The position numbers were made by a program, and so were the translations under genes. DNA of 64,000 bases from Bdellovibrio sp. (GTDB lineage: Bacteria > Bdellovibrionota > Bdellovibrionia > Bdellovibrionales > Bdellovibrionaceae): assembly GCA_036676395.1 (NCBI GenBank), contig JAKFCY010000002.1:1024001-1088000 (forward strand), in the 5' to 3' direction. Positions 19,478 through 50,260 of the stretch are shown piece by piece; positions within the stretch are counted from its first letter, which is position 1, and each line of letters opens with the position of its first letter. A model generated the notes under the pieces. The model was not told where the DNA came from and did not search any database. It saw nothing but the letters and a program-made list of their open reading frames with translations.

Positions 19478-19942
19478 ATGAAAAATATTTTAATCGGTTT
19501 TTTCTTAATCAGCAGTACGTTAACAGCAAACGCCAACGATATCGCACAGAACGTAAATTCTGAGTTGGCTAAAGTAGAAACCGAAATGGATGCTTGTGGG
19601 GCTGTCATGCCGGTCAACAAGCTGATAGCCCTTGGTAAAAAAGATCGCTCAGGTTCAATCGTTGATTCTTTAATTGCAGCTTTAAAAAATGATAAGCTAG
19701 GTGCTTATTCTAAATCGGGTGCTGCAATGGCTTTGGGTCAAATCGGAGACGCACGTGCCATAACTGATTTACAAAAGTCAGCTGATACAGCCACAGACGC
19801 TATGTTAAAATCTATTTCTCAAGATGCTATTTCGTTAATTAAGGGCGAATTTAAAAGTGAAGGTAAAATTTATGTTTATTCATTCGCAATTAAAAAACTA
19901 AAAACTGATTGCGAATCAGGAATTTCAGAAATCGTTAAATAA
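19478..19942 (+). CDS. secreted HEAT-repeat protein
   Basis: signal peptide; LIAALK...AAMALGQIGDARAI..L. Confidence 0.7.
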   Translation: MKNILIGFFLISSTLTANANDIAQNVNSELAKVETEMDACGAVMPVNKLIALGKKDRSGSIVDSLIAALKNDKLGAYSKSGAAMALGQIGDARAITDLQKSADTATDAMLKSISQDAISLIKGEFKSEGKIYVYSFAIKKLKTDCESGISEIVK

Positions 19943-19943
19943 T

Positions 19944-20005
19944 TGCTTAATTTTCGACGCTCTTGTTTTCGGTTTACACTTTTTTTGTAAACCGAAATAC
20001 AGAGT
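19944..20005 (+). repeat. dispersed hairpin element, copy C (expanded loop)
   Basis: TGCTTA-N5-CGAC-GCTC...TTTCGGTTTACA-loop-TGTAAACCGAAA...GAG. Confidence 0.55.
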
Positions 20006-20039
20006 AAAAAAAAGCCAAGGTTTTATCCTTGGCTTTTTT
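20006..20039. terminator. bidirectional intrinsic terminator
   Basis: A8-GCCAAGG-ttttat-CCTTGGC-T6 between convergent genes. Confidence 0.8.
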
Positions 20040-20085: not shown

Positions 20086-21249
20086 TTATCTTTCAGAGAT
20101 CGGTTTTACATTGCGTTGTGGAGCGCCGATGTACTCAGATAACGGGCGGATAATTCTGTTATTCGCCGTTTGTTCCATAATGTGCGCTGACCAACCTGTA
20201 GTGCGCGCCATGACAAAAATTGGAGTAAAGAAATCGATTTCAAAGCCCATCATGAAGTAAGCAGGACCTGCTGGGAAATCTAAGTTAGGGTAGATTTTTT
20301 TCTTTTCGACCATGACTTTTTCTAAAGATGTGTACATCTTCATCCATTTTTGTTCGCCAGTGACATCAGCCATAACTTGCGCGTACTTTTTCATTGTCGG
20401 AACACGTGAATCCCCTGATTTGTAAACGCGGTGACCAAAGCCCATCACTTTACGTTTGTTTGCTAACGCGTCTAACATCCACTGTTCAGCTTTTTCTGCA
20501 TCTGCGATTTCGATCATCATGTGCATGACCATTTCATTGGCGCCGCCGTGTAAAGGGCCTTTTAAAGCGCCGATACCAGCAGTTGTTGCAGAATAAATGT
20601 CAGATTGAGTTGAAGTTACAACACGTGCTGTGAAAGTCGACGCATTGAAAGAATGCTCAGCGTATAATACTAAAGAGACGTCAAAAGCTTTAACTACTTT
20701 TGCATCTGGCACTTTGCCAAAACACATGTGAAAGAAGTTTTCTGCGATTGATAAATTAGGGTTTGGCGCAATAAAGTCTAAACCTTTTTTAAAACGGTAA
20801 TCAGCAGCAACCATAGTTGGGATTTTTGCTAATAAACGGATCGCTTTATCCATGTTTACAGCCGGAGATGCATCCCAGATTCTTTCGTCTTCACAACCTA
20901 AAAACGAAACACCTGTGCGGATAGAATCCATCGGGTGACACTTTTTAGGTAGAGCTTTGATAACATTTAAATTGTCTTTAGAAATATCACGTAATGATTT
21001 TTCTTTGGCAGAGAATTCAGCAAGCTGAGCTTTATTCGGCAGTTCGCCGTTATACATTAAGTACGCTACTTCTTCAAAAGAGCAGTTTTCAGCTAAATCT
21101 TGAACAGGGTAACCACGGTAGACTAATGAATTTGTCTCGGCATTTACTTTAGATACAGATGATGTATCCATAACAACGCCTTCAAGACCTTTTTTAACGT
21201 TCATTTTTTCTGGTTCAGCTACGTAATCCGGATTGATATATTCAGCCAT
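20086..21249 (-). CDS. prpC: 2-methylcitrate synthase
   Basis: GLEGV, YAEHSFNASTF, GPLHGGANE, MGFGHRVY, PNLDF; in the prp operon. Confidence 0.92.
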   Translation of the reverse strand: MAEYINPDYVAEPEKMNVKKGLEGVVMDTSSVSKVNAETNSLVYRGYPVQDLAENCSFEEVAYLMYNGELPNKAQLAEFSAKEKSLRDISKDNLNVIKALPKKCHPMDSIRTGVSFLGCEDERIWDASPAVNMDKAIRLLAKIPTMVAADYRFKKGLDFIAPNPNLSIAENFFHMCFGKVPDAKVVKAFDVSLVLYAEHSFNASTFTARVVTSTQSDIYSATTAGIGALKGPLHGGANEMVMHMMIEIADAEKAEQWMLDALANKRKVMGFGHRVYKSGDSRVPTMKKYAQVMADVTGEQKWMKMYTSLEKVMVEKKKIYPNLDFPAGPAYFMMGFEIDFFTPIFVMARTTGWSAHIMEQTANNRIIRPLSEYIGAPQRNVKPISER

Positions 21250-35291: not shown

Positions 35292-36171
35292 AACAGTAGA
35301 AGTAAAAGGTGTCGGCATTCACTCAGGCGAACCGTGCACATTACGTTTTAAACCAGCTCCGGCAAACACGGGTGTCTATTTTATTCGCGCCGATTTGCCA
35401 GGAAAACCATTTTTAAAAGTTTCAGCCACCAACGTGCAGGCTGTCAGTTACCAAACCGTTGTGGGTGGTGATATGTTTAAGGTGGCAACGATTGAACACT
35501 GTGTTTCATCGTTATCAGCCTTAAGAATTGATAATATATATATTGAATTAGACGGTCCAGAGATTCCGATCTGCGATGGCAGTTCAATTTATTTCACACA
35601 AGCTTTAATGAACGCAGAACTTATCGAATTAGATGAGCCCAGAAAATACTGTTATATCACTGAACCGATCAGTTATTCTGAAGGCGATAAACATGCCTAC
35701 GTGCTTCCATATTACGGGTTACGTATTGCTGTGACTATTGATTTTCCGCATCCTGTGATCGGTAAAGAAACTATTGATTTAGAAATTACCGAACAATCTT
35801 TTGCCCGTGAAATTGCACCAGCAAGAACTTTTGGATTTTTAAAAGACGTCGAACAATTAAAAGCCTCTGGTTTAGCTAAGGGTGGTTCATTAGATAATTG
35901 TATTGTGTTGGATGACACTAAAGTGATTAATCCAGATGGTTTACGTTACAAAGATGAATTTGTTCGCCATAAAGTATTAGATGCCTTAGGCGATTTAGTG
36001 ACTTTAGAAATGCCATTGATGGGTCATTTAATTTTACATAAAGCAGGTCATGATATTATGAACAAATTAGTTCGTAAAATCGTATCCCAACCGCAAAGCT
36101 ACCGTTTTGTTGAATTAGGCGCCGATGTGTCAAGCGAGATGAAAAAATTCTCTCAGTGGAGCGTAAGCTAA
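35266..36171 (+). CDS. lpxC: UDP-3-O-acyl-GlcNAc deacetylase
   Basis: GVGIHSG, TIEH, EIPICDGS, ARTFGF, HKVLDALGD. Confidence 0.96.
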   Translation: MFFQKTIRKTVEVKGVGIHSGEPCTLRFKPAPANTGVYFIRADLPGKPFLKVSATNVQAVSYQTVVGGDMFKVATIEHCVSSLSALRIDNIYIELDGPEIPICDGSSIYFTQALMNAELIELDEPRKYCYITEPISYSEGDKHAYVLPYYGLRIAVTIDFPHPVIGKETIDLEITEQSFAREIAPARTFGFLKDVEQLKASGLAKGGSLDNCIVLDDTKVINPDGLRYKDEFVRHKVLDALGDLVTLEMPLMGHLILHKAGHDIMNKLVRKIVSQPQSYRFVELGADVSSEMKKFSQWSVS

Positions 36172-36175
36172 AAAC

Positions 36176-36610
36176 ATGGGGATGAAGTTATCTCCTGCAG
36201 CTGATGTTTTTGTTTTAAATTCAGAAAATAAAGTTTTATTAGTCAAAAGAACCGACAACGGTTTTTGGTGTTTGCCTGGTGGCAAGCAAGACCTTGGCGA
36301 AACACCGGCAGAATGCGCCGTTCGTGAATGTTTCGAAGAGTCAGGTTATAAAGTTAAAATCACAGGTTTATTAGGCGTGTACAGCTCGCAATGTTACGAA
36401 TACAAAAATTACCCCTGGAAAGACAACGAGTTCTGCCATGTCTGTTATCGCGCCGAAGTGATTGGTGGCGAACCGACTTTATCGCATGAAACCAGCGAAA
36501 TCGGCTGGTTTGCAGAAAACGAAATTCCACCTTTGTCAGACGGGCATGATGTGCGCATAGCGTTTGGATTTAAAATGCGTAACGAAAAATTCAACGGCCA
36601 TTTCGAATAA
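36176..36610 (+). CDS. NUDIX hydrolase
   Basis: Nudix box GG...GET...AVRECFEESG. Confidence 0.9.
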   Translation: MGMKLSPAADVFVLNSENKVLLVKRTDNGFWCLPGGKQDLGETPAECAVRECFEESGYKVKITGLLGVYSSQCYEYKNYPWKDNEFCHVCYRAEVIGGEPTLSHETSEIGWFAENEIPPLSDGHDVRIAFGFKMRNEKFNGHFE

Positions 36611-36615
36611 ATAAA

Positions 36616-36672
36616 TGCTTATAAAACGACACTCGGGGTTTCAGTCAACATTGTTGACCTAAACCCCGAGCG
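36616..36672 (+). repeat. dispersed hairpin element, copy A
   Basis: 40/57 ungapped identity to 48709-48765 with covarying stem. Confidence 0.7.
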
Positions 36673-36733
36673 AAAAAAATGACACATTATTATTCACTTG
36701 TGGAAAGGTTTTAATTCTTTAAAACTGCTTGGC

Positions 36734-37144
36734 ATGGCTTTTAAAAAAGTGAATGAAAATACGCCGTTTACTAAAGCGGTGATTAAGATGGTTAAAAAGA
36801 TTCCTAAAGGAAAAGTGGCTAGCTACGGGCAAATCGCCAAGATTTCGGGGAACGCTGGTGGTTCGCGTGGGGTTGCGTGGATTTTACATGCGTGTTCGAA
36901 GAAGTATAGACTGCCCTGGCATAGGGTGGTTAATTCGCAAGGTAAGATCTCTTTTGATAAAACGACGAAAGAATTTAGAAACCAGAAAAATCTTTTGCAA
37001 AAAGAAGGCGTGGTTTTTTCTGACAGCAGCGTGGTTAATTTTAAAAAGTTTCGCTGGAGTAAAATGAAGGCTCCGAAAAGAAAAATTTCGGCGGCTATTT
37101 CTGGTGAAACACCGGCAAAAAAACAGCCTAAAATGTTTGGATAA
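36734..37144 (+). CDS. alkyltransferase-like protein (MGMT family, YbaZ/Atl)
   Basis: IPKGKVASYGQIA; PWHRVV (Trp in place of the catalytic Cys). Confidence 0.88.
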   Translation: MAFKKVNENTPFTKAVIKMVKKIPKGKVASYGQIAKISGNAGGSRGVAWILHACSKKYRLPWHRVVNSQGKISFDKTTKEFRNQKNLLQKEGVVFSDSSVVNFKKFRWSKMKAPKRKISAAISGETPAKKQPKMFG

Positions 37145-37147
37145 ATT

Positions 37148-37486
37148 ATGAAATATAAAATGTATGGAATTCCTAATTGTGACACGGTTAAAAAAGCGCG
37201 CGTGGCTTTAGAGAAAAAGAAAATTGATTATGACTTTGTTGATTTTAAAAAGACTCCACCAACTGCTGATGATTTAAAACGTTGGGAAAAAGCTTTTGGT
37301 GAATTGCCGGCGAATAAAAAAGGGCCTACTTTTCGTAAAATTAAAGAAGAATTTGAGTCGGCAAGTTATCATGAACAGGTTAATTTATTGTTAAAAAACA
37401 GTTCAGCAATCAAACGGCCAATACTTGAGTCAAATAGCAAAGTAGTGTGTTTTGGCTATGATGATGAGATTTATAAAAAAATTTAA
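37148..37486 (+). CDS. ArsC/Spx family protein (YffB-like)
   Basis: YGIPNCDTVKKAR, IKRPILE. Confidence 0.88.
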   Translation: MKYKMYGIPNCDTVKKARVALEKKKIDYDFVDFKKTPPTADDLKRWEKAFGELPANKKGPTFRKIKEEFESASYHEQVNLLLKNSSAIKRPILESNSKVVCFGYDDEIYKKI

Positions 37487-37575
37487 ACCCGTTGACCTTA
37501 GCGTCACGAATTAAGAAACGCATATACCTAGACACATTTCTCGATGGGCATACGATATGATTGGAGGACTTGTTT

Positions 37576-38874
37576 ATGGACGGCACCACAGTTAACGCCC
37601 TAGAGATTATCAGAGATATATATAATGTCGATCAGCTATTGTCCGGTAAAAAATATATTCGCGAGTTAGTAAAAAGATTAGCACAAACTTTGAAAGTAAA
37701 ATTTGTTATGGTTGGACATGCGATTGAACCATTCGCGAAAAGTGTTCAAACAGATTATCTATTTGCGAATGGAAAATTTGTCGACAATGTCATTTACGGA
37801 CTTGAAGGAACGCCGTGCACAGAAGTTTTATGTGGAACGCGCGTGAATTGTTACAGCGCGAATGTGCAAGCGCAATTTCCTCATGATCAGATGCTCAAGG
37901 ATATGAATGTTGAATGTTATATGGGAGCACCTTTTTTACATACGGATGGTGGTCTGATAGGGTTACTGGTCATTATGGATGACCGTCCTTTTCAGGATTT
38001 AGATTTGGCCACAGCTGTTGTTGAATTTTTTGCAGCTCGTATCGGAACTGAGTACCGCAGATTAGCCGCTGAAGAGTCGTTAAAGCGAAGCAATGTAGAT
38101 TTAGAAAAACTTGTCGAGACGCGCACTAAACAGCTTATCTCGCAAGAAAAATTGGCCACGATTGGACGTATAACTTTGGGAATTGCTCATGAGCTGAAAA
38201 ATCCGTTGAATATAATTATCAACGGTTCAGAACTTTTGCAGGAATCGGGTGTCGACGCTGCGGATCGCCGACGCACATTAGATATGATTCGCCAACACGG
38301 GCTTCGGGCAAATGATATTATCACTAGCATGCTTAAACAGGCTAGACAGGATGCGGACATGACGCCAGAGAGCGTGGATATGTCAAATTTACTTAGGCAC
38401 GCTTTGGATGTTTTCTTAAAATCGATGACTGATTTAGATCTCAAAGCAAAGCTCACTCAGAAAATTAATATCGCACCGCAAGTGCAGGCAAACCTGATTG
38501 ACGTGCCAGCGATCGAACGAGTTTTCATTAATATCATAGATAATGCAGCTTATGCTCTTGGCGAAAAATTACTTAAATCACCATCATCGTTTAAACCCGA
38601 ATTGCAGGTTGAACTGAGTTTTCAAAACTCACGCTGTCGAATTCGCGTCAGAGATAATGGCATTGGCATACCCACAAAACATCTGACACATGTTTGTGAT
38701 GAATTTTACACAACGAAGCCGCCTGGCGAGGGAACGGGCTTAGGTTTATGGGTTGTAAAACAGAATATAGAAAAAAACCGCGGATCTATTAAGATTGAAA
38801 GCCGTGAAAATGAATTTACTGAAGTTGTCATCGAGCTACCAGCACAGGGGCGTGTGGCCGAGGTTGGTTTATGA
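37576..38874 (+). CDS. GAF-domain sensor histidine kinase
   Basis: GAF (GTPC..V, YMGAP), H-box AHELKNPL, N/G boxes DNGIGI, FYTTK..GEGTGLGL. Confidence 0.92.
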   Translation: MDGTTVNALEIIRDIYNVDQLLSGKKYIRELVKRLAQTLKVKFVMVGHAIEPFAKSVQTDYLFANGKFVDNVIYGLEGTPCTEVLCGTRVNCYSANVQAQFPHDQMLKDMNVECYMGAPFLHTDGGLIGLLVIMDDRPFQDLDLATAVVEFFAARIGTEYRRLAAEESLKRSNVDLEKLVETRTKQLISQEKLATIGRITLGIAHELKNPLNIIINGSELLQESGVDAADRRRTLDMIRQHGLRANDIITSMLKQARQDADMTPESVDMSNLLRHALDVFLKSMTDLDLKAKLTQKINIAPQVQANLIDVPAIERVFINIIDNAAYALGEKLLKSPSSFKPELQVELSFQNSRCRIRVRDNGIGIPTKHLTHVCDEFYTTKPPGEGTGLGLWVVKQNIEKNRGSIKIESRENEFTEVVIELPAQGRVAEVGL

Positions 38875-39278
38875 CGGCAACCACTCCTTTAGATATTGTG
38901 ATGGTTGATGATGAATCTAGTGTGGGAACTTTATATGAAATGAAATTTCGTAAGCCGATTCAAAAAGGCCATATTCGCTTTCACTTTTTTGAAAATGCAA
39001 AAGACTGCTTAGATTACCTTAAACAATCACCGAGGCATCATGGGTCGGAAGTGCTGCTAACTGACATCAACATGCCTGAAGTCTCTGGGTTTGAATTGTT
39101 AACTAAAGTTAAACAAAATTTTCCAGACATTAATGTCTTTATGATGAGTGCTTATGACGATGAGTCGAGTATTCGAAAATCGATGCAGCTGGGGGCGAGT
39201 GGTTATTTCACTAAGCCTGTAAATTATAAAGAGCTGCAATCTCGGATAGAGGCTGATTATGGAGTCAGCCTCTCGTAA
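38871..39278 (+). CDS. single-domain response regulator
   Basis: VDDE, LTDINMP, MSA, FTKP. Confidence 0.93.
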   Translation: MTATTPLDIVMVDDESSVGTLYEMKFRKPIQKGHIRFHFFENAKDCLDYLKQSPRHHGSEVLLTDINMPEVSGFELLTKVKQNFPDINVFMMSAYDDESSIRKSMQLGASGYFTKPVNYKELQSRIEADYGVSLS

Positions 39279-39453
39279 TTTCACTTATGCCTAAAAGCTG
39301 TGCATAAATTCCATAGCTCAAGCCTTCAAAAAATTAGATTAATTGCCCTTTTTGAGAGGCGCTGGTAGCTTCGTGGTCTCTCAAAATTTAACCACGCGAG
39401 CGCCTTGGGTGTGAGCGGGAAAAAGTCGTGCTTAATGCACGCAGGAGTACAGT

Positions 39454-40560
39454 ATGATTATCGGAGTTCCAAAGGAAATTAAAATCAGCGAAAACCGCGT
39501 TGGTATGACTGAAGCGGGTGCTAAACAGTTCACTAAAGAGGGTCACAAAGTGATCATCGAAAAAGATGCTGGTGTTGGCAGCGGTATTACGAATGAGCAA
39601 TACGAAAAAGCTGGCGCAACTATCATTGATACTAAAAAAGAAGTTTACGCTAAAGCTGATATGATCATGAAAGTGAAAGAACCACTTCCTGCTGAATATG
39701 AATTAATGCGCGAAAACCAAATCATGTACACGTACCTTCACTTAGCTGCTGAACCTGAATTAACTAAAGTGTTATGTCAGAAAAAAGTTAAAGCGATCGC
39801 TTACGAAACTATTCAATTAGAAAATGGTTCTTTGCCATTATTAACTCCGATGTCTGAAGTTGCAGGCCGCATGGCAACTCAGGTTGGTGCTTTCTATTTA
39901 CAAAAAGATCACGGTGGCAAAGGTATTTTATTAGGTGGTGTAACAGGAGTTATGCCAGGTAAAGTAACGATCATCGGTGGTGGTGTTGTAGGAACAAATG
40001 CCGCGAAAATGGCCGTAGGTCTTGGCGCACAAGTTACAATCTTAGACGTATCAACGGCTCGTTTAGAGTACTTAGATGATATTTTTCAAGGTCGCGCACA
40101 AACTTTATTCTCTAATGCAAAAAATATCGAAGAAGCAGTTCTTGATTCTGACTTAGTTGTTGGTGGTGTACTTATCACTGGTCACAAAGCTCCGACATTG
40201 GTGACTAAAGACATGATCTCAGGAATGAGAAAAGGTTCTGTAGTTGTAGACGTTGCGGTTGACCAAGGTGGTTGTATCGAGACTTGCCGTCCGACTTCAC
40301 ACACGACACCAACTTATGAAGTTGATGGCGTAATCCATTACTGTGTACCTAATATGCCAGGTGTTGTGCCTCGTACTTCAACTTACGCTTTAACTAACGT
40401 AACTTTAAAATACGGTTCAATGATCGCAGCTATGGGTGTTGAAGATGCTATCGCTAAAAACAAACCTTTAATGAAAGGTTTAAATGTTTACGGCGGCTAC
40501 GTATGTTACGAGCCAGTAGCTAAAGATTTAGGTATGGAATACCGTCCGTACAAAATCTAG
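39454..40560 (+). CDS. ald: alanine dehydrogenase
   Basis: [39 protein letters not shown]. Confidence 0.97.
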
Positions 40561-41289
40561 TTAGTATGCTATCGCAGTGTTGCCCCAGTCTTCAGTTTTG
40601 ATCAGGGGCACACGGTGTATATGTAATCTCAGTAAAACCTCTTTATGAGGGTGATTAAATTTGGCCATACGTGATTGCACGATGGCCATTTTTATTTGTG
40701 GCAGGTTCTTTAAGAGTAAATCGCTGGTGCTTGTGCGGCTGCCGTGATGACCTAACAGTAAGTAATCAATTTTGTGCGTTTTAAGGCGATTAGCCCAGGT
40801 TTTTTCCATCTTTTTAGAAGAGTCGCCCGGGATTAAAATATTTTTGTATCTGTACACCAAAGAGCTATCGTTCTTATTCGAAAAATCACTGGGTTTAAAG
40901 ATACGCTCTTGCTGTAAGTCATCCGACTTTGCACATAAGGGAATCTTGCGGGTTAAACGTTTTGCGGGAATCGATGTGTGATCAAGCTCACTCCAGCAGA
41001 TTTTAGGAATATATTTAACCAACATCGAATAATAAGCGTAATGATCTAAATCTGGATGCGATAAACTTAAAGTGTTTTGTTTGTTTTTGCAGAGTTTTAA
41101 AAATAAATTCTGATTTTTTCTCCAGGGCCCGAGTTCGCCGCCAAAATCAAAGTGCTTACATTCATCAGGTGTGACGGCAGTGATCCATTGCCCTTGGCCA
41201 ACATTCCAAAAGATCACGTATAAATACGATGATTTATTTGCACATATAGTCGAATGCAGAAATAGCCAAAAAAATATTAATTTAGACAT
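40561..41289 (-). CDS. ComEC-type metallo-beta-lactamase domain protein (separate C-terminal part)
   Basis: NVGQG, SHPDLDH, NDSS, PGD, GHHGS.TS, HPH. Confidence 0.8.
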   Translation of the reverse strand: MSKLIFFWLFLHSTICANKSSYLYVIFWNVGQGQWITAVTPDECKHFDFGGELGPWRKNQNLFLKLCKNKQNTLSLSHPDLDHYAYYSMLVKYIPKICWSELDHTSIPAKRLTRKIPLCAKSDDLQQERIFKPSDFSNKNDSSLVYRYKNILIPGDSSKKMEKTWANRLKTHKIDYLLLGHHGSRTSTSDLLLKNLPQIKMAIVQSRMAKFNHPHKEVLLRLHIHRVPLIKTEDWGNTAIAY

Positions 41290-42173
41290 GTCACTGGCTT
41301 TCTTGTGAAATAATTTAAAAATAAGTGAAGCGCGATAATTAATACCCAGTTAATAAAAATCATTTTTTCGCTATCGTAAGGGCGAAAAATCACGGTGAGT
41401 TCAAGTTTAGATAAAATCATATTCAAACTAACTATTAAAAAATCGAATATTGAGCCTAAAAATGGAAATAGAAATACAGCTAAAGCGAGCGGAAATAAAA
41501 CGTACTCTAAAAATTTAGTGAAAAGGGTGGAGACCCCGATGGATGCCGGTTGTGGAATACCAATAAAATTAAATGTCGCTAAGTATTGAAAATAGAAAAT
41601 AGAATTTTTTAAAAACGAATTTGCCTTGGCGAAAAAATAACCGATCACACTTAAAGTCAGGGCTGCAATCCAGCTCATTTGCAGCGATAAAGAATTGATC
41701 CACGCTGGCGAAAGGATTAAACAAATCAAACCCGACACTAAAACTAGGTTTTCAGTTTTCCATTTTAAATTTATTTTTTCAATAACTGCTAAAATGAGCA
41801 GCGCTATAAAACTGCGCATGATGGGCGGATTGAAATTGCAAATGCCACAGTACAAAAATAAGAGCGAAAATGTAGCTACTTTGTTACATAATAAATATAG
41901 AATTATTTTTCGCAAAATCATGAGGTGAGATGCCGATACAACAAATAAATGAATTAGCCCCGACGCGATTAATAAATTCGACTGCGCAGGGTCAGAAAAG
42001 TTTTTTCCGCACACTAAAGCTTGTAAGGATTCAAAAGATCTTACATGGTCGGACGCTGCTTCAACACAAGCCGAATGGAGTTGTGAACAAAATCCGATCA
42101 AAAAATCAATAACCGAAAAGCGGATGGTGTGTGATATTAACACTATGTAGATTAAAATATAGACGAAGTTCAT
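41277..42173 (-). CDS. comEC: ComEC/Rec2 competence membrane domain
   Basis: SGLIHLFVVSASH, P.IMRS, SLQMS; multi-TM. Confidence 0.75.
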   Translation of the reverse strand: MNFVYILIYIVLISHTIRFSVIDFLIGFCSQLHSACVEAASDHVRSFESLQALVCGKNFSDPAQSNLLIASGLIHLFVVSASHLMILRKIILYLLCNKVATFSLLFLYCGICNFNPPIMRSFIALLILAVIEKINLKWKTENLVLVSGLICLILSPAWINSLSLQMSWIAALTLSVIGYFFAKANSFLKNSIFYFQYLATFNFIGIPQPASIGVSTLFTKFLEYVLFPLALAVFLFPFLGSIFDFLIVSLNMILSKLELTVIFRPYDSEKMIFINWVLIIALHLFLNYFTRKPVTCLN

Positions 42174-42426
42174 GCGTTCTATGCAATTGCAAAGCGCACA
42201 AATTTAAGATTTCTAAAATTTTTTTTAAGATTTATTGGCTTTTTTAGAAATGATTAATTTAATCAAATACTTAACTGAGGTTGAATTATAAGCAAATCGC
42301 TGAAAACACTGATAATCAACGGGTCCAAAGTCCAGAAACATGAGTTAATAACATTTTATGTGGATAAGTCGGATAACTTTATTGAATTAGGTTCAAGAGT
42401 TGAGTTTAATTATATCAGGGGGCGAC

Positions 42427-42867
42427 ATGAGATTTTCACTTCTTATCACTTTACTATTTTTTTCATTTTTCAGCTGCCAGTCAATGAGCAGGAATTCTAA
42501 GTCAACAATTTCGGCGCCTAAAAAAACTGTGTCTACTAAATCGCCAGCGACAAAAATTGCAAAAAAAGTAGATACAGTTAAGCAACCTGCTGTAAATCCA
42601 GCGTTGGGGCAAAAAAGTATTTACGAAGAGTTAACCGGAAAAAAACGCGTGTCTGCGAAAAAAGCACCAACTCGTATTTTAGAACTGGCACGTGATGCGA
42701 AATGGAAACGTGATTACGTTACCGCGCTTAAAAGATACAACACGATTATAGTTAAATATCCAAAATCAAAAGAAGTGCGCCAAGCGTATTTAGATAAAGC
42801 AGCTTTGTACCGCGAGATGGGCTTATTGCAACAATCTAAATACAATATGGAGAAGGCTAAAAAATAA
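42427..42867 (+). CDS. lipoprotein with C-terminal TPR
   Basis: AGGGGG SD; lipobox FFSC; Y..IIVKYPKS TPR-like segment. Confidence 0.7.
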   Translation: MRFSLLITLLFFSFFSCQSMSRNSKSTISAPKKTVSTKSPATKIAKKVDTVKQPAVNPALGQKSIYEELTGKKRVSAKKAPTRILELARDAKWKRDYVTALKRYNTIIVKYPKSKEVRQAYLDKAALYREMGLLQQSKYNMEKAKK

Positions 42868-44441
42868 TGATTTGTCGCTTTAGAAAAAGCATCTTTGTAA
42901 CGGCAGCAGCAATCAGTTTTATTTTTCTTCCAGCCTTGAGCCAGGAAGACCCTGCTGCGCCATCTGCGCCTCCTCCTCCTCCTCCTGCGGCTCCAGCTGG
43001 TCAAGAGATGCCGGCAAGCCGGCCTAAATATGATATCGAATTAAATAAAGACAGTAGTTCATTTGTTCCGGATCCAGATTCGTTAGATCCGTTACCTTTA
43101 AAAAAAGAATCGTTAAAAGAAGACGATGAGCCTGTATTAGATGACATCAAATCGATTCTTAAAACTAAGGCTAAGAAGCCAAAAGCAGGTGCTGCTAAGC
43201 CTGGTGATGGTGCAGCTGCGGCTCCGGTAAAAAAAGCCAAGAAAAAAGTTACACGTAAAAAAGCTAAAAAATCTGCGCCGGTTGTTGATACTTCGAACTT
43301 ATCACCAGATGATCCAGATTTGGCTTTAGAACAAAAATTTAACGACATCTATAATAAGTATAATATCAATCCTACTTCTGATGATGTTTGGGGAGCCGCC
43401 TCAAGCAAAGCCGCTCAAGTGTATGACGTGCAAAAAGGCGATACGTTATTTACGATCAGCCGCACATTATTTGGTGATCCTCAATTTTGGCCAAAAATTT
43501 GGGCCTTAAACAATGGCGGCATTACAAATCCGCATAACATTGCGCCCGGAACTAAAATTTATTTTTATCCAGGTGATGGTGGAGCAGCCCCGTCAATGTC
43601 TGTGGGGAGTGAGTCTCCTGAACGTGCGGCATGGGTTGATCCTGATGCGCCCGTTATTCGTGATACGACAACGAAACAAAACACCGAATTTAATAAATTA
43701 GTTCAAGAAGGTGTTAAGGGTAAAACTGACGTGCAAAATATTCCGCCGAGTTTTCCGCCCTTTTCGGTGAGCTCGAAATATTTTGCGGCGGCTAAGTCGA
43801 CAAAATTTTTAATTACACCGGCAGCTGAAATCGTAGATCGTGATCCGGAAAACCCTTTTATTTTAACTTCGTCGATAATCACGACTGAATATAAGGTGAT
43901 GGAAAAAAATGCGAACTCGTTAGTTTGTAAAGATAACCAGTATGTTCCTGCGGTTCTTAAGATTGGCAAGAATGCAAAGCCCGGCCGCTACAGTATGTTG
44001 GTGCAAGAGAGTTTTAACTTTGGTCAGCTAAAACGTACGTATATTTATCGCATTATCGGCGAAGCGGATGTGGGCAGTGATGAATCGCTTCGTATTTCTC
44101 AGTGTATTAAACCGGTCAATACGGATGTGTTGCTGGTAAGCAGCGAAGATCTTGCTGAAGTAAAACCGCCGAGTGAGTTAATTCCCAATACCCGTTCACA
44201 GATTATTGAAGGTGTTGAAGTGAATGCTCAGCAGTATTATTATGCTCATCAATATGTGATCTTAAACATGAGTCAGTTGCCAGCCCTTGAAGGCGCTGAT
44301 TTAAAAGTCTATTCGGCATCAGCCGGTGGCGTCGTCGGAGAGATTCGTATTTTAAAACGCACGGGCACTATGGCTATTGGCTATGTGATGAATAACGATG
44401 ACCTGGTTCAGGTGGGTGATCGGGTGATTATTCCGGAATAG
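42867..44441 (+). CDS. LysM peptidoglycan-binding protein
   Basis: signal peptide, Pro/Lys-rich linker, YDVQKGDTLF.IS..LFGDP..WPKIW..N..ITNPH.I.PG. Confidence 0.85.
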   Translation: MICRFRKSIFVTAAAISFIFLPALSQEDPAAPSAPPPPPPAAPAGQEMPASRPKYDIELNKDSSSFVPDPDSLDPLPLKKESLKEDDEPVLDDIKSILKTKAKKPKAGAAKPGDGAAAAPVKKAKKKVTRKKAKKSAPVVDTSNLSPDDPDLALEQKFNDIYNKYNINPTSDDVWGAASSKAAQVYDVQKGDTLFTISRTLFGDPQFWPKIWALNNGGITNPHNIAPGTKIYFYPGDGGAAPSMSVGSESPERAAWVDPDAPVIRDTTTKQNTEFNKLVQEGVKGKTDVQNIPPSFPPFSVSSKYFAAAKSTKFLITPAAEIVDRDPENPFILTSSIITTEYKVMEKNANSLVCKDNQYVPAVLKIGKNAKPGRYSMLVQESFNFGQLKRTYIYRIIGEADVGSDESLRISQCIKPVNTDVLLVSSEDLAEVKPPSELIPNTRSQIIEGVEVNAQQYYYAHQYVILNMSQLPALEGADLKVYSASAGGVVGEIRILKRTGTMAIGYVMNNDDLVQVGDRVIIPE

Positions 44442-44461
44442 TTATTGAAACAACTACGGTT

Positions 44462-45313
44462 ATGAAAAAAGCCGTACTGTTTAAAGCCCTGCAAAGACAT
44501 TTAGGATTCCGTAATCCGGATTCTATCTTACAAATCACACCTGAAATTATAAATAAGCTGGCGCCGCAAGAATTGATCTTGAGTGAGCGTTATTTGCTGA
44601 GTCTAAAAGACAAAGGCATTCAGTTTACTTATCCGGGCGATGCGCTTTATCCCGCAAGTTTTTATCAAATGTTAGAGCCACCATTATTTTTAGAGTACGT
44701 CGGTGAGCCCGTGTGGATGCATAAACAAATTCTGGCCATTGTCGGCGCGCGAAAAATTCATCCGTTTACAGATCGTTGGCTGCGCTTTGAGATTCCACTG
44801 TTTTTAGAAGCTAGGCCTGATATAGCCATTGCCAGCGGTGGCGCTGTTGGCGTTGATCAGTGTGCGCATACTGTGGCGATTAAATCAGATCGGCCGACGA
44901 TTGTGGTCTTGCCGTGCGGGTTAGAGAATTTGTTTCCGAAAAATTTAAATACATTGAAGAAATTAGTTTTGCAAACGGGTGGATGTTTTTTATCTGAATT
45001 CGAGAGTGAACAAAGTGTGCGTAAACATCTTTTCTTTTTTCGAAATCGTTTAATTACCGCGTTAGCGCAAGTCACGATGGTGGCGCAGGCTGAAAAAAAG
45101 AGTGGAAGTTTTCTTACAGTTCATCACGCACTTCAAAATGGACGCACGATGGTAACTCTTCCTGCGCATCCGATGATGTTTGAATTTTCTGGAAACCAAC
45201 ATTTAATGCGTGAAGGGTGTTTCTATGTGCTTACAAACAAGGATTTGCTTAATTTTTGGGAGGCTGAATGTTGGTCTGGTCGGGGTTTGACACTAGATAT
45301 AGACCGCATTTAG
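44462..45313 (+). CDS. dprA: DNA-processing protein DprA
   Basis: AIVGAR, SGGA.GVD..AH, RNRLI, SGS..T..AL..GR. Confidence 0.9.
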   Translation: MKKAVLFKALQRHLGFRNPDSILQITPEIINKLAPQELILSERYLLSLKDKGIQFTYPGDALYPASFYQMLEPPLFLEYVGEPVWMHKQILAIVGARKIHPFTDRWLRFEIPLFLEARPDIAIASGGAVGVDQCAHTVAIKSDRPTIVVLPCGLENLFPKNLNTLKKLVLQTGGCFLSEFESEQSVRKHLFFFRNRLITALAQVTMVAQAEKKSGSFLTVHHALQNGRTMVTLPAHPMMFEFSGNQHLMREGCFYVLTNKDLLNFWEAECWSGRGLTLDIDRI

Positions 45314-45404
45314 TTAAATTGCTTGACCCCTGCCACTAGGTCTAGTGAAGGCAGTGACTAAGGTCAATATTCTTCAGAAAAGTGAAATAATCTAAAAAAA
45401 CCTA

Positions 45405-45434
45405 TTGAGAAAAAAAGAAAGATGCATCTAAAAT
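45405..45434 (+). promoter_or_regulatory. candidate sigma70 promoter TTGAGA-N18-TAAAAT
   Basis: near-consensus hexamers pointing into an intergenic region with no ORF. Confidence 0.45.
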
Positions 45435-45440
45435 AATAAT

Positions 45441-45507
45441 AAGGGAGGGGCGATGTGGTCATGGATGACCCTGGTTGTATGGATGCAGCTACATCGTTCC
45501 GTTTTTC
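45441..45507 (+). ncRNA. candidate small RNA with two AUGGAU stem-loops
   Basis: 12-bp closing stem 45447-45458/45489-45500, two internal GGA hairpins, U-tract. Confidence 0.45.
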
Positions 45508-45524
45508 TTAAATTTAAAAATTAC

Positions 45525-45555
45525 AAAGACGAAGTCACTCTTCGTCTTTTTTTTT
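45525..45555. terminator. intrinsic terminator
   Basis: AAAGACGAAG-tcact-CTTCGTCTTT followed by a long T run. Confidence 0.8.
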
Positions 45556-45577
45556 GTCTTTTTTCTATTCGGGATTC

Positions 45578-46675
45578 TTACGATAATTTTTTGTGAATTT
45601 GGTTAGCCGATACGACAGCGAAAATAAAATTCGCCACCCATGGGCCCATGTAAGGTGGAAGTCTTTGGCTGCGTGATAAGCCTTCGAAGGCAATGTAAAC
45701 AATAAAGTACCCGACGATAAAAGCCACCGACACCACAAAGCCGGATGACTTGCCAGAACGGCGATCGTTGATGACTCCGTAACCAACGCCGACTAACCCG
45801 AAAATCAAGCAGGCAGCGGCTAAGGCGAATCTTTTGTGAAACTCAACAGCGAAGCCGACCTTTTCATTATCTTTGAGTGTGGCGTCGTTTAAGCGCTCTT
45901 GTAACTCGTTATAGTTTAATGAGGGCGGAGATTTTTTACGTTCTTCAAATTTAACCGGATCGTTTAATAAAACATCGTAAGAATCAAATTCAACGACAGT
46001 GTGAGCCTGGCCGCGACGATGAATCTGGCCTTTGAATAAACGCAACAACACGCTGTGACCTGGGTTGTCTAAATCAGGAATGATATGACCTTGCGGTGCG
46101 ATGATGGTTAAGGGCGAACTTGGATTTTTATCATCGTAAATAAATAAATCCTGAAGTAGGCCTTCTTCTGAATTCACTTTATTGGCGTAAATCACCATAT
46201 CAAAAAAGCCTTCTGAAAAAGTGCCCTCTTTGATGCTGGCAGCGGCTTTGGTGTTGCCAAGGTGAGTGATTAATAATTCGAATTGGCGATTTCCCCATGG
46301 GGCAACATAGAATGCAGTTTGCGCTGAGAGAACACTGATCACCAAAGCAAAGGCTACGGCCGGAGCCAGAATTGTGCCCCCGTGATAGCCAGCGCCTTTA
46401 AGGGCGATGATTTCAGAATCAAGAGATGCGCGGTTGTATGTCATCAGAATCGCAAACAGCAGCGACATCGGTAAGATCATCGGTAAGAATGAAATGCTCA
46501 TATAACCCATGATGTCTAAAATAAATGAAAATTTAATTCCATGAACTAAGACGAATTCAGTTAGACGAAGGGCTTGAAACATCAACAAGATCGAAATAAA
46601 TACCAACACACCCAGAATAAAGGTGGGAACCATTTCAGAGAGTAAATAAAAAAATACGCGGCGTGATTTCCACAT
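45578..46675 (-). CDS. lptF: LPS export ABC permease LptF
   Basis: LP.SLL..IL..YNR...DSEI.ALK.AG, EGTF, EFHKRFAL. Confidence 0.85.
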   Translation of the reverse strand: MWKSRRVFFYLLSEMVPTFILGVLVFISILLMFQALRLTEFVLVHGIKFSFILDIMGYMSISFLPMILPMSLLFAILMTYNRASLDSEIIALKGAGYHGGTILAPAVAFALVISVLSAQTAFYVAPWGNRQFELLITHLGNTKAAASIKEGTFSEGFFDMVIYANKVNSEEGLLQDLFIYDDKNPSSPLTIIAPQGHIIPDLDNPGHSVLLRLFKGQIHRRGQAHTVVEFDSYDVLLNDPVKFEERKKSPPSLNYNELQERLNDATLKDNEKVGFAVEFHKRFALAAACLIFGLVGVGYGVINDRRSGKSSGFVVSVAFIVGYFIVYIAFEGLSRSQRLPPYMGPWVANFIFAVVSANQIHKKLS

Positions 46676-46735
46676 CTCGAGATAGTATAAATAATTTCTT
46701 TGCTATCGTCATTGGTTGGATTCTAGAATAGACCT

Positions 46736-47536
46736 ATGGATAGAGTACTTATCGTCACAGAAGAAGCCGTTTTTGCCTCGCATGTAGAAAAAACTCTGAT
46801 CGAGGTCGGCTTTGAAGCGGCTTTATTGAATAACGAAAATGGTTTGCAGCATAAAATTTTTGAATTCCAGCCAGATATTGTTGTTGTAAAAGGTGGTTCG
46901 GCCAAGCTTTCTTCGATGCGCGTTGGCCAAGTTTTAAAAGAAATCATCAAATACCAAGGTAAAGTCATTCTGATTTTAAATAAAAATCAAAACATTGATC
47001 CCCATGATATTAACCGCGTAAAAATGGATTATTTGTTATTTGAACCAGTTGGCGCAGTTAAAGTAGTTTCTCATGTTTTGAACCTAGTCACCGAACATCG
47101 CGATGCTATTCGTGGGCGTCTGCAGAAAATCGCTGACAGTGATCCCAACTTTCGCAAACAAGAAGAAAACTTTATGGTTTCTGGAAAAAATGCGGATCAC
47201 GAGATGATTCATGTGACCGGTAAGGCAGATAAAACCGCAGTGACCCATGTTAAAAGTAAAGAAGGCCTCGCTCACGAAGAGATGCAGCATATCAAGGAGC
47301 AGTTCGAGAAAGAATTGATTGATAATGAGGCGTTACACCACAAGAAAATAGAGGCTTACGATAATGCTATCAGTAATCTCGATGCAGACTTGAAGTTAGG
47401 CCATAAAAAGAGGCATGCTAATGAGAAGCAAAAGGCATTACGCAAGGAGCTTCTGGTTGATCCTGGCCAAGAAAAGTTGGACAGTCTAGATCAGGATCGC
47501 CGAAAGTTTGCGATCGCTTTAACAAAAAAGAGGTAG
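46736..47536 (+). CDS. hypothetical protein with N-terminal pseudo-receiver domain
   Basis: RVLIV.EE...FQPDIVVV pattern lacking the phospho-Asp; charged C-terminus. Confidence 0.6.
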   Translation: MDRVLIVTEEAVFASHVEKTLIEVGFEAALLNNENGLQHKIFEFQPDIVVVKGGSAKLSSMRVGQVLKEIIKYQGKVILILNKNQNIDPHDINRVKMDYLLFEPVGAVKVVSHVLNLVTEHRDAIRGRLQKIADSDPNFRKQEENFMVSGKNADHEMIHVTGKADKTAVTHVKSKEGLAHEEMQHIKEQFEKELIDNEALHHKKIEAYDNAISNLDADLKLGHKKRHANEKQKALRKELLVDPGQEKLDSLDQDRRKFAIALTKKR

Positions 47537-47566
47537 GTCGCGCCGCAGGCGCACAAAGGGGTAAAC

Positions 47567-47890
47567 GTGGCAAAAACACAACCAGTAACAGATTCAAGTT
47601 TTCAAACTGACGTATTAAACTCTTCAACTCCAGTTCTTGTAGATTTCTGGGCTGAGTGGTGTGCACCCTGCCGCGCTCTAGGTCCAAAACTAGAAGAAGT
47701 CGCTACTGAATTAGAAGGTAAAGTTAAAATCGTAAAAATGAACGTTGATGAAAATCCAGCGACACCAGGCCAATTTGGTATTCGCGGAATTCCAGCAATG
47801 CTTTTATTCAAAGACGGAAAACAAGTGGGCGAGTTAGTTGGAAATCATCCAAAAGAACGCATCACTGAATTTTTAACGACGCACGCTTAA
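47567..47890 (+). CDS. trxA: thioredoxin
   Basis: VDFWAEWCAPC, IRGIP. Confidence 0.95.
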   Translation: MAKTQPVTDSSFQTDVLNSSTPVLVDFWAEWCAPCRALGPKLEEVATELEGKVKIVKMNVDENPATPGQFGIRGIPAMLLFKDGKQVGELVGNHPKERITEFLTTHA

Positions 47891-47927
47891 TTGCACTTAA
47901 TTTAAAAAATTAGTTTAGGAAAAAGTC

Positions 47928-48194
47928 ATGAGCCAAACAGTAAAAGTAACAATGGTTAAAAAAAATCCGTGTCCTTATTGTGAACGGGCTATGACTTTTT
48001 TCGATAACCGCGGCATCAAAGTAGACATCATTGATTTAACTGGAAAACCAGACGAGTTAATGGAGTGGAAAACGAAAACCGGGTGGATGACAGTTCCAAT
48101 CATCATGATCAATGATCAACTTATCGGTGGATACACTGATCTAAAAGCCTTAGACGAAGAGGGCAAGTTAAATCCTCTTTTAGGCATCGCCTAA
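47928..48194 (+). CDS. glutaredoxin
   Basis: CPYC, TVP, IGGYTDL. Confidence 0.92.
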   Translation: MSQTVKVTMVKKNPCPYCERAMTFFDNRGIKVDIIDLTGKPDELMEWKTKTGWMTVPIIMINDQLIGGYTDLKALDEEGKLNPLLGIA

Positions 48195-48623
48195 ATAAAT
48201 TAAGTTAAATCTTTTTTGCAATCCGGATGCATTGTTCTTTAATCCCATTCTGGCTAGATTGCGTGCTAGTTTTGATCTCGCGCTCGATGCTGAAACTAAA
48301 AGATTAAATCGACATCTTTCCTCATAGGTTAAGCGAAGCTTTCGCGAAATAGTCTCAGCTTTTTTGCGAGAGAGGCCTTTCTTGTTTCTAAAAATGCGAC
48401 TTAAATGGATCGGGTCGAGTTTAAGATCTGCCGCGAATGAGCGTAAAGAGTAAAATGAATTGGTTTTTCTACGTAAGTGAAACTCTTCTTTAAGAATATT
48501 AATATAAAGCAATCTATCCATGACTAAGGATTTTTTTTGCTCACGATTTTTAGCATAGGCCAATTTTGATTTCATCTTTTTTTGATCGTTCATGCGGAAT
48601 GATAGATGCAAAAAAAGCGGCAT
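48180..48623 (-). CDS. HTH protein, TIGR02147-like N-terminal domain only (start uncertain)
   Basis: LKEEF..RR..N..YSLRSFA.DL.L...LSRI..NKKGLS. Confidence 0.65.
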   Translation of the reverse strand: MPLFLHLSFRMNDQKKMKSKLAYAKNREQKKSLVMDRLLYINILKEEFHLRRKTNSFYSLRSFAADLKLDPIHLSRIFRNKKGLSRKKAETISRKLRLTYEERCRFNLLVSASSARSKLARNLARMGLKNNASGLQKRFNLIYLGDA

Positions 48624-48708
48624 AACTCTCAGTTGTTTTTAGATCAGTAGAGTGACGAGAATGATGGTGGTCCGGCTTATCGGATCTAATAGCGGATGTT
48701 TTAGTAAT

Positions 48709-48765
48709 TGCTTATTAAACGACGCTCGTACTTTGGGACTACATTGTAGTCTGAAAGTACGAGTG
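48709..48765 (+). repeat. dispersed hairpin element, copy B
   Basis: 40/57 ungapped identity to 36616-36672 with covarying stem. Confidence 0.7.
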
Positions 48766-48776
48766 CCGAAAAGGGT

Positions 48777-49793
48777 CTAACTTAATAGTTTTTCTAAATG
48801 GGATTTGAATTCGATGGGTTTTTTGTGAATTTTTACCTGGTCGAAAACTTCTCGGGCTTTTGGTGAGGCTAATCTTAATTGGCTTAACCATTGTTTGGTG
48901 CGTGCTGTGGCGAAGTGATCATTTACATAGATGGTGCAAGCGTTGAAGAACGGTACGATTAAGGCTAGAGATTCCTCTTTGTTTGTAGAGAGGTTGTCAT
49001 TTGGAAATTCAGTTATCGCCTTAGCTGCTAAGTGGGCTTTTATATCTTTAAATATATATGGATTTCTTAGAGCCCCGCGGCCGATCATGAAATCTTGGCA
49101 GTCGGTTTCGGTTTTGCATTTTTCGAAATCGCCGATATTCCAGATTTCTCCGTTGGCGATGATTTTTACTTTTGTGGTCTGTTTGATTTTTGGAATCCAT
49201 TCCCAGTAGGCTGGTGGCTTGTAGCCGTCGGTTTTTGTTCGGCAATGAACTGTAACCCACGTTGCACCTGCGTCTTCGCAGGCTTTGACGTTATCTAAGC
49301 TTGCGCTTGGATCATCGAAGCCTAATCTTACTTTGGCGGTGACGGGTGTTGATAGCGGAACTGCTTTTCTAACTGTTTCTACGATTTTAAAAACTCGGTC
49401 GGTGCATTTTAGTAAACTGGCACCGCCGTCGTGGCGATTTACGGTTTTTGCTGGGCAGCCGAAATTGAGATCGATGCCTAGGGCTCCCATTTCATGGGCG
49501 CGCAATGCGTTTTCGGCTAAGGGGCCGGGTTGTCCGCCTAAGAGTTGCACGAATACGGGAGTTCCGCTTCTGGTTTTTGAACCCGTGGCTAATTCTGGAC
49601 AATTGCGTTCGAAAACTTTGTACGGGTGAAGCTTGTCGGTGACGCGTAGAAATTCGGTCACGCATTGATCGATGCCGCCAAGACTAGTTAGTAAATCACG
49701 CATGGCCCAATCAGTTACACCTTCCATCGGAGCGAGAAAAAGTTTTGCTGGGGCGGTGCCCTGATTTTGACTAGGTGACATGTTAAGCGACAT
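48777..49793 (-). CDS. tRNA-dihydrouridine synthase (DusC-like)
   Basis: LAPMEGV, DLNFGCPAK.V, VTAKVRLG, ANGEI, MIGRG. Confidence 0.92.
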   Translation of the reverse strand: MSLNMSPSQNQGTAPAKLFLAPMEGVTDWAMRDLLTSLGGIDQCVTEFLRVTDKLHPYKVFERNCPELATGSKTRSGTPVFVQLLGGQPGPLAENALRAHEMGALGIDLNFGCPAKTVNRHDGGASLLKCTDRVFKIVETVRKAVPLSTPVTAKVRLGFDDPSASLDNVKACEDAGATWVTVHCRTKTDGYKPPAYWEWIPKIKQTTKVKIIANGEIWNIGDFEKCKTETDCQDFMIGRGALRNPYIFKDIKAHLAAKAITEFPNDNLSTNKEESLALIVPFFNACTIYVNDHFATARTKQWLSQLRLASPKAREVFDQVKIHKKPIEFKSHLEKLLS

Positions 49794-49807
49794 GCCTTAG
49801 GTAATAG

Positions 49808-50260
49808 CTATTTTTGTCCGAGTTTGCAAATGTGTTCGAATTCGGCTTTGGTCACAGGGCTTACAGAAAGTCGGCCTTGCTTGAGTAAAATCATCTCTTT
49901 TAGCTTAGGGTCGTGTTTAATTTGATCTAAGCTTATGAGCTGCTTAAAAGTGCTGTGATATTTAATTTCAGTGCAAAACCAGATTGGTTTTTCTTTGGTA
50001 GCTTTTTCAGCGTAGTATTCTGATTTTTTATCAAATTGGAGTTTATCTGGTTGGGCTAACTGGCTGACCTCGGCGATGCCGATGACTCCAGAAGGCTCTG
50101 CATTTGAGTGATAAAATAGAACTTGATCGCCAATTTCCATGCTTTGCATGAAATTGCGAGCCGTGTAGTTACGCACACCTGTCCACCAAGTGGTTTTGTC
50201 TTTTTTTAGATGCTCAATCGAGAATACATCAGGTTCTGATTTCATTAGCCAATACTTCAT
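49808..50260 (-). CDS. EVE-domain protein
   Basis: YWLMKSEP, GVRNY.ARN, FYHS, RLSV.PV. Confidence 0.92.
   Translation of the reverse strand: MKYWLMKSEPDVFSIEHLKKDKTTWWTGVRNYTARNFMQSMEIGDQVLFYHSNAEPSGVIGIAEVSQLAQPDKLQFDKKSEYYAEKATKEKPIWFCTEIKYHSTFKQLISLDQIKHDPKLKEMILLKQGRLSVSPVTKAEFEHICKLGQK

Follow-up and report, generated by a model that had tools for sequence, protein, structure and literature searches.

Few of the features that recur in bacterial chromosomes are as poorly understood as small tagged palindromes, and the question raised here is what kind of element forms two hairpins that share a 5′ flank and differ in much of their stem on one contig of a Bdellovibrio sp. (JAKFCY010000002.1, positions 1,024,001 to 1,088,000 of the forward strand; these 64,000 nucleotides are called the window below). 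The initial annotation had noted them as copies A and B (Table 1) of a dispersed repetitive extragenic palindrome (REP)-like family with a CGAC foot tag. The elements are a real, previously undescribed REP-like variant of putative function and mechanism. In the reading that we prefer, to which a probability of about 0.4 is given, they constitute a tagged palindrome specific to the Bdellovibrionota lineage, which may be read by a protein as a folded single strand and may spread or be homogenised at 3′-end sites.

Copies A and B share a tag and compensate changes in the stem

The sequences of A and B stand where the initial annotation placed them and align without gaps at 40 of 57 bases, including 14 of the 15 tag positions, exactly as it had reported. 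When all 57-mers of the window on both strands were compared with A, B was the best non-self match (40 identities; mean 14.4, standard deviation 3.3). The exact 15-nt tag pattern was found in the window at A and B only, and a search of the window allowing three mismatches or fewer yielded 6 matches versus 6.28 expected, i.e. the chance level. Both copies form strong hairpins whichever strand is folded (-25.1 to -33 kcal/mol, z -5.3 to -6.6), and none of 200 shuffles was as stable as the A or B hairpin. The strand preference of folding is inconsistent among the copies, A being more stable on the minus strand (-31 versus -25.1 kcal/mol on the plus strand) and B on the plus strand (-33 versus -26.9 kcal/mol on the minus strand). 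A hairpin scan of the 64 kb identified four strong hairpins, namely A, B, a third copy (C) and a terminator beside C.

The hairpin of A has a CTCG/CGAG foot, a 2 × 2 internal loop and a 3-nt apex, and that of B contains a 1 × 1 internal loop and G.T wobbles. By our count, the A hairpin matches B at 31 of 43 positions when reverse-complemented versus 27 of 43 in direct comparison. Inspection of the stems bore out the five claimed double changes from one Watson-Crick pair to another, at stem pairs 7, 8, 9, 16 and 18, and in each of the eight pairs in which the left arm of A differs from that of B, the right arm differs too. The other three of these pairs are imperfect ones that stay imperfect, as had been proposed, with A.C replaced by G.T twice and C.T by G.G once.

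Six copies in two related genomes

Copy C, already listed in the initial annotation, is present in the window (Table 1), with a 7-nt apex loop and offset bulges in the outer stem. When a genome collection was scanned for the tag plus the first bases of the stem, 14 loci were retrieved, none of them the window itself, where about 35 chance matches would be expected at equal base frequencies by our arithmetic. Twelve of these were rejected, as they carry the tag by chance, have no hairpin and score at most 22.5 bits. The remaining two, L004 and L012, come from one Bdellovibrionota metagenome-assembled genome (MAG). L004, on contig JAZKGG010000010.1, is syntenic with positions 26680-48185 of the window at 84% blastn identity (84.4% in coding DNA and 71% between genes over the full alignment) and holds A′, which is flanked by the same NUDIX and MGMT-like genes as A and is its orthologue. 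L012 is not syntenic with the window and holds two copies, of which D has the tag and a broken outer stem, and E has an intact hairpin and no recognisable CGAC tag.

A covariance model was built from five copies; the six copies score 65-85 bits, and the next best forward match in the 301 kb searched reaches at most 22.5 bits. With all filters off, the model gave 81-85 bits for A, B and C in the window, 37-50 bits for their reverse strands and 13.4 bits for the next match, so the plus strand of the window carries exactly three copies and the minus strand none. No extra copies emerged when the window, L004 and L012 were scanned with a descriptor of CTC...GAG-footed hairpins. The claim of a dispersed family thus holds, with three copies in the 64-kb window and three in the related MAG, which accounts for two of the 14 exact strict tag matches in the collection.

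Neither B, compared with plasmids by blastn, nor C, compared with phages, had a match, and comparison of the window with Rfam at gathering thresholds, which the initial annotation had proposed, gave just two tRNAs and hence no family match. In E-value mode, A and B reached at most 19.1 bits in Rfam 15 against thresholds of 40-99, with generic hairpin matches to microRNA models. Full-text literature searches retrieved no account of such an element in Bdellovibrio-like bacteria.

Shared anatomy and maintained pairing

The unit of about 57-63 nt consists of TGCTTA, five A/T positions and CGAC, followed by an imperfect stem of 18-20 bp that is opened by the last C of CGAC; TGCTTA is usually preceded by AA plus one A/T, and the 3′ flank is A-rich. 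All six copies are intergenic and fold (D with its outer stem broken), and the folded part spans at least some 43 nt. At the second position of the stem, five of the six copies have a G.T pair (G.U in RNA) and A has A.C. The fixed parts of the stem are the foot CTCG/CGAG, a TTT/AAA block and an AC/GT closure of the apex. Three to four variable pairs lie between the foot and the TTT/AAA block, and an internal loop or mismatch at pairs 13-14 is followed by five to seven pairs ending in AC/GT. The proposed CGAC foot tag stood in part: a tag is present, and it is longer than CGAC, which is no better conserved than TGCTTA or the CTCG/CGAG foot.

The apex loops measure 3, 7, 13 or about 39 nt. That of A′ carries a 37-nt insert with a small hairpin of its own (L004 9948-9984), which has no other match in the DNA examined. 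Together with the 7-nt loop of C and the 13-nt loop of E, this insert suggests that the apex tolerates insertions.

The initial annotation had also proposed a single-stranded 5′ tag next to a stem that keeps its pairing as its sequence changes, and the pairing statistics support this. In an alignment of the six copies, which are related sequences and whose fitting to the model favours pairing counts, 86.7% of the cells are paired, versus 26-47% when the partner columns are slid. Changes on both sides occur in 9 of 20 pairs, a number reached by none of 500 column shuffles. Selection is not the only process that would give such paired changes; they fit equally with template switching, by which a palindrome corrects itself, and with gene conversion among the copies. 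Template switching within inverted repeats is described as able to create or maintain hairpins and to invert spacers (PMC8794818, PMC8604942).

Copies at unrelated loci can resemble each other more closely than orthologues do

The orthologues A and A′ are identical at 27 of 40 stem columns, whereas A′ is closer to every other copy (D 34/40, C 32/40, E 32/40 and B 31/40). C of the window and E of the MAG agree at 38 of 40 stem columns, clearly more than the identity of the genomes as a whole would give, although their loci are unrelated: C lies between a HEAT-like open reading frame (ORF) and a citrate-synthase-family gene, and E between an ABC-F gene and an Mrp-type ATPase gene. At the orthologous site, 16 of 19 leader columns are identical in A and A′, against 49% (79 of 161 columns) over the whole spacer, and both copies are still near-perfect hairpins. 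The conserved tag and the near-perfect hairpins indicate that something maintains both copies.

Judged from these alignments, vertical descent of independently constrained hairpins would not predict that C and E resemble each other more than A and A′ do. Such a pattern would be predicted by copying to new sites, by gene conversion among copies or by very strong constraint on one variant, and the near-identity of C and E fits a copying or self-homogenising repeat.

Comparison with known hairpin systems

Like the GTAG REPs that are associated with RAYT/TnpA-REP, the elements are extragenic imperfect palindromes at gene 3′ ends in either orientation, with a conserved motif that stays unpaired next to the stem, complementary changes within the stem and G.T pairs. 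Complementary stem changes, G.T pairs, either orientation and extragenic location are all described for REP subfamilies (PMC3733652). Recognition by E. coli TnpA-REP is reported to need an imperfect palindrome that contains a bulge and follows a conserved motif (PMC8266576), and by likeness of description the present elements follow the same plan. They differ from GTAG REPs in their 15-nt tag (GTAG and GTRG are absent beside the stem from both strands of all six copies), in stems of 18-20 bp versus 5-13 bp (mostly 6-9) there, and in units of about 43 nt or more versus the 20-40 bp given for those REPs (PMC3733652). Further differences are the greater stem divergence, the lack of dimers or clusters, the apparently low copy number, against tens to hundreds per genome for those REPs, and the lack of a RAYT in the DNA examined.

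A likeness to CGTC REPs is seen on the minus strand, which reads CGTC beside the foot in B, C, A′ and D, and TGTC in A. TGTC is listed as a CGTC variant, in a superfamily described as having no dedicated transposase (Di Nocera et al. 2013, PMC3733652). The CGTC families are characterised by stems of 8-9 bp that start with A-T pairs, loops of 4-5 nt and a CCA tail (PMC3733652), whereas the present stems of 18-20 bp start with C-G / G.T, the loops are of 3, 7, 13 or about 39 nt and there is no CCA tail. Moreover, the motif is partly paired here and, read on the minus strand, stands 3′ of the hairpin, which would differ from the published polarity.

The subterminal hairpins of IS200/IS605 elements are described as being read as single-stranded DNA, with a nearby short sequence, on the lagging-strand template (10.1101/279083). 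The present elements also combine an imperfect hairpin with a nearby short sequence, but they are single hairpins without cargo, unlike the distinct left and right ends that flank tnpA/tnpB in those elements, and no Y1_Tnp or OrfB match was obtained among the window and L012 ORFs scanned. In common with intrinsic terminators they are strong hairpins at gene ends; unlike terminators, they have no T tract after the stem on either strand and they do have a conserved 5′ tag. Integron attC sites differ from them in having core boxes (none was seen by eye), arrays and an integrase, which was not found among the window ORFs.

Genomic context

The window is ordinary Gram-negative chromosome of 40% GC, with ruvCAB, lpxC, tamAB-like, efp, lptF/G, dus and prp genes. 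The six copies occupy five independent sites, all extragenic at gene 3′ ends and in mixed orientation to their neighbours. As the initial annotation had claimed, A lies on the same strand as its upstream NUDIX gene and B on the strand opposite to dus; B is also antisense to the next ORF on the minus strand (Table 1). A starts 5 nt, A′ 22 nt and C 1 nt after a stop codon. At three of the five sites (C, D and E) a canonical terminator lies within 25 nt: E follows the ABC-F gene and the terminator of that gene, and the two-way terminator directly after C was missed by a simple terminator scan. Because GC skew is positive across the window and L012, the tagged strand is on the G-rich strand at four of the five sites.

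Table 1. Positions in the window of the hairpin copies and of the features around them
Feature	Position	Strand	Remarks
Copy A	36616..36672	+	85 bits; tag 36616-36630 (TGCTTA, W5, CGAC); hairpin 36630-36672
Copy B	48709..48765	+	83.9 bits; tag 48709-48723; hairpin 48723-48765
Copy C	19944..20006	+	80.8 bits; tag 19944-19958; hairpin 19958-20006
Frames overlapping the tag	36615-36662, 48708-48749, 19943-19990		In plus-strand copies A, B and C, respectively
NUDIX hydrolase gene	36176..36610	+	Upstream of A, same strand
Gene of MGMT-type DNA-binding domain protein	36734..37144	+	Downstream of A
dus (tRNA dihydrouridine synthase)	48777..49793	-	Its stop codon is closely followed by B, which is on the other strand
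147-aa ORF, weakly TIGR02147-like	48180..48623	-	25.6 bits, cut-off 50; downstream of B on the minus strand
HEAT-repeat-like ORF	19478..19942	+	Upstream of C
Citrate-synthase-family gene	20086..21249	-	Convergent on C
Two-way terminator hairpin, canonical-looking	20008..20039		A run, GC-rich stem, T run; directly after C, outside the family

D is antisense to the lytic-transglycosylase gene that it follows. An orphan c-di-GMP-I riboswitch (63.3 bits) on the same strand as D precedes it by 220 nt and is separated from it by the riboswitch's own terminator-like hairpin; a canonical terminator follows D. The riboswitch unit occupies L012 9918-10335 on the minus strand. It has a promoter-like site just upstream of the riboswitch (10241-10331) and no ORF longer than 43 aa downstream on the same strand, and it continues through its own terminator-like hairpin, more hairpins and D to a final terminator, about 410-430 nt in total. 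In size and in the absence of an ORF it recalls the merRNA of B. bacteriovorus, which is 445 nt long and which its authors report not to have found outside the Bdellovibrio lineage (PMC3627812).

Around B, the DNA after the glutaredoxin stop codon (window 48195-48776, L004 1-147) is non-homologous between the two genomes by blastn and tblastx, so that B borders on a variable segment; an orthologue of B in the MAG would be expected about 380 nt past the end of L004. A FliA-like (sigma-28) promoter was recognised by eye at 48677-48703 on the minus strand (TAAAACAT, 11 nt, TCCGATAA), close beyond B and 54 nt ahead of the TIGR02147-like ORF. FliA-type sites are described as driving attack-phase genes of B. 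bacteriovorus (PMC3627812).

Three further features of the window were recorded. A GAF histidine kinase and response-regulator pair at 37561-39278 is replaced by about 68 nt in the MAG (L004 9055-9123). The comEC gene (minus strand, 40561-42173) is present as two ORFs with a 13-nt overlap, one with the Competence domain (41277-42173) and one with the metallo-hydrolase C-terminal part (40561-41289), which is either a natural split or a frameshift. The region 56094-63025 encodes a chimeric fibre protein of 1822 aa that matches the Bdellovibrio mosaic adhesive trimer (MAT) family (NF053851, 162 bits, cut-off 60) and has a Peptidase_S74 chaperone domain, followed by a 488-aa fibrinogen-like GGGWT-domain protein; these genes look like prey-recognition fibre genes of a Bdellovibrio-like predator.

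Proposed mechanism and alternative explanations

The comparisons directly support the family itself, its conservation pattern, the paired changes, the non-terminator anatomy and the orthologue/paralogue pattern. In the preferred reading as a REP-like tagged palindrome, one strand would fold, as transient single-stranded DNA or as transcript, and a trans-acting protein would read the tag, the foot (R-CTCG / CGAG-Y-G), the TTT/AAA block, the internal loop and the AC/GT closure, being indifferent to the other stem sequence provided that pairing holds. Copies would occupy harmless spots at gene 3′ ends and beside terminators, and would be re-copied to new sites or homogenised mutually, such that paralogues could exceed orthologues in likeness. 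Folding in vivo, the reader protein and the copying or conversion are putative steps. An RNA-level role is as likely as a role of single-stranded DNA.

In its REP-like part, the initial proposal was right about a dispersed and tagged family that is absent from Rfam and shows a repeat-like C/E pattern, while the associated transposase and an empty site were not found. Several points weigh against the preferred reading. No Y1/HUH transposase of the RAYT/TnpA type or any other transposase occurs among the ORFs scanned in the 104 kb of relevant DNA examined (61 window ORFs, 24 of them re-scanned with NCBIfam, and 17 L012 ORFs), and the sole comparable site, that of A, is filled in both genomes. 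The copy number of the family may be low, perhaps a handful, unlike that of classical REPs, and the stem sequences differ far more between copies than is typical of REP families. That the tag has been kept at an orthologous site of some age speaks for a host function and not for a purely selfish element. The strand bias (four of five sites) is not significant, the sites being too few, and the small sample of related sequences in a structure-fitted alignment shows that pairing is maintained, not how.

An alternative that we regard as a genuine, if tentative, possibility is a cis-acting RNA module in 3′ untranslated regions or non-coding transcripts, with the tag and the helix of about two turns, including its fixed internal loop, serving as a binding or processing site, for example an RNase III-type cleavage site or a 3′-end stabiliser, and with pairing kept by selection on the RNA. 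It overlaps with the reading as REP-like palindrome because REPs can also act as RNA, and REPs are often transcribed according to PMC3733652. Four of the five sites (A/A′, C, E and D) are sense to the upstream transcription unit, and the tag is kept at the orthologous site within a poorly conserved spacer. The second stem pair, G.U in five copies, is A.C in the sixth, which is the usual wobble-for-wobble exchange in RNAs. Such a module fits poorly with B, which is antisense to both neighbours and has no plus-strand gene or Rfam RNA upstream, and with D, which lies beyond the terminator-like hairpin of the riboswitch itself and has a broken outer stem. Nor would it explain the inconsistent strand preference of folding (A minus, B plus), and the C/E identity of 38/40 against 27/40 for the orthologues would be hard to obtain from vertical descent alone. 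A more far-reaching proposal, which we consider doubtful, is a self-propagating or self-homogenising class of tagged hairpins confined to Bdellovibrio-like predators, in which a non-RAYT protein would read the 15-nt tag and the shape of the two-turn helix, and which would also be used as RNA, with D in the read-through zone of the merRNA-like transcript of the orphan c-di-GMP riboswitch, by which the expression of D would be gated.

That the copies are ordinary intrinsic terminators or stabiliser hairpins, sharing ancestry and having no family-specific function, is quite unlikely. Every copy does lie at a gene 3′ end, a short T-rich run stands 4 nt past the stem on the minus strand of A, B and A′, and a minus-strand reading would make B sense to dus. 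However, no copy has a terminator-type T tract on either strand, the 24 terminator-like sites called in 36000-50000 include neither A nor B, and C is also uncalled by the terminator scan. The 5-nt spacers of C and D have the opposite A/T polarity, and these copies are already beside a real terminator; A would end antisense transcription only, and a 14/15 tag match next to three of the four strongest hairpins in 64 kb would be unexpected among unrelated terminators. We hold it very unlikely that the elements are relics of a known single-strand mobile system, i.e. solo IS200/IS605-type ends or orphan integron attC sites, despite the imperfect hairpin with a conserved flank, a possible preference for the G-rich strand (the lagging-strand template), and stems of variable sequence and constant structure that resemble the attC logic. 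No tnpA, tnpB or intI was found in the 104 kb, one hairpin type is present and not a left/right pair, no AAC/GTT core boxes were seen at the ends by eye, and the copies lie 12-17 kb apart in housekeeping DNA, not in an array. Highly improbable, finally, is a tiny ORF, for which an (A/T)TG overlapping the tag opens a frame of 13-15 codons in the tagged copies. This frame is open in all five of them, with peptides sharing M/L-L-[IN]-[KF]-R-[RH]-S-x-F, but no copy has a Shine-Dalgarno-like run within 20 nt upstream, E has no start, and the variation tracks the pairing of the stem and not the position within codons. At 40% GC, a frame of about 13 codons would by our arithmetic be open roughly half of the time, and the copies are homologous; the frame is probably a by-product. 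Two other candidates were rejected: a sigma-70 promoter inside the tag was not supported by the promoter and terminator scans, and a boxA/nut-like antitermination site matched the rrn boxA at 5-8 of 13 positions by eye, inconsistently between copies.

Implications

If these elements are merely a handful of conserved 3′ hairpins, they amount to a modest annotation item. As a family of tagged palindromes, they offer a clean case, with a long tag, a long stem and every left-arm stem difference between A and B falling on a pair. One orthologous site and near-identical non-orthologous copies are available in two related genomes, and these comparisons make selection on structure, self-correction of palindromes and copying between sites directly testable once complete genomes are at hand. 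To our knowledge, Bdellovibrio-like predators are poor in described mobile DNA, and a native repeat family would help in strain typing and in locating safe insertion sites.

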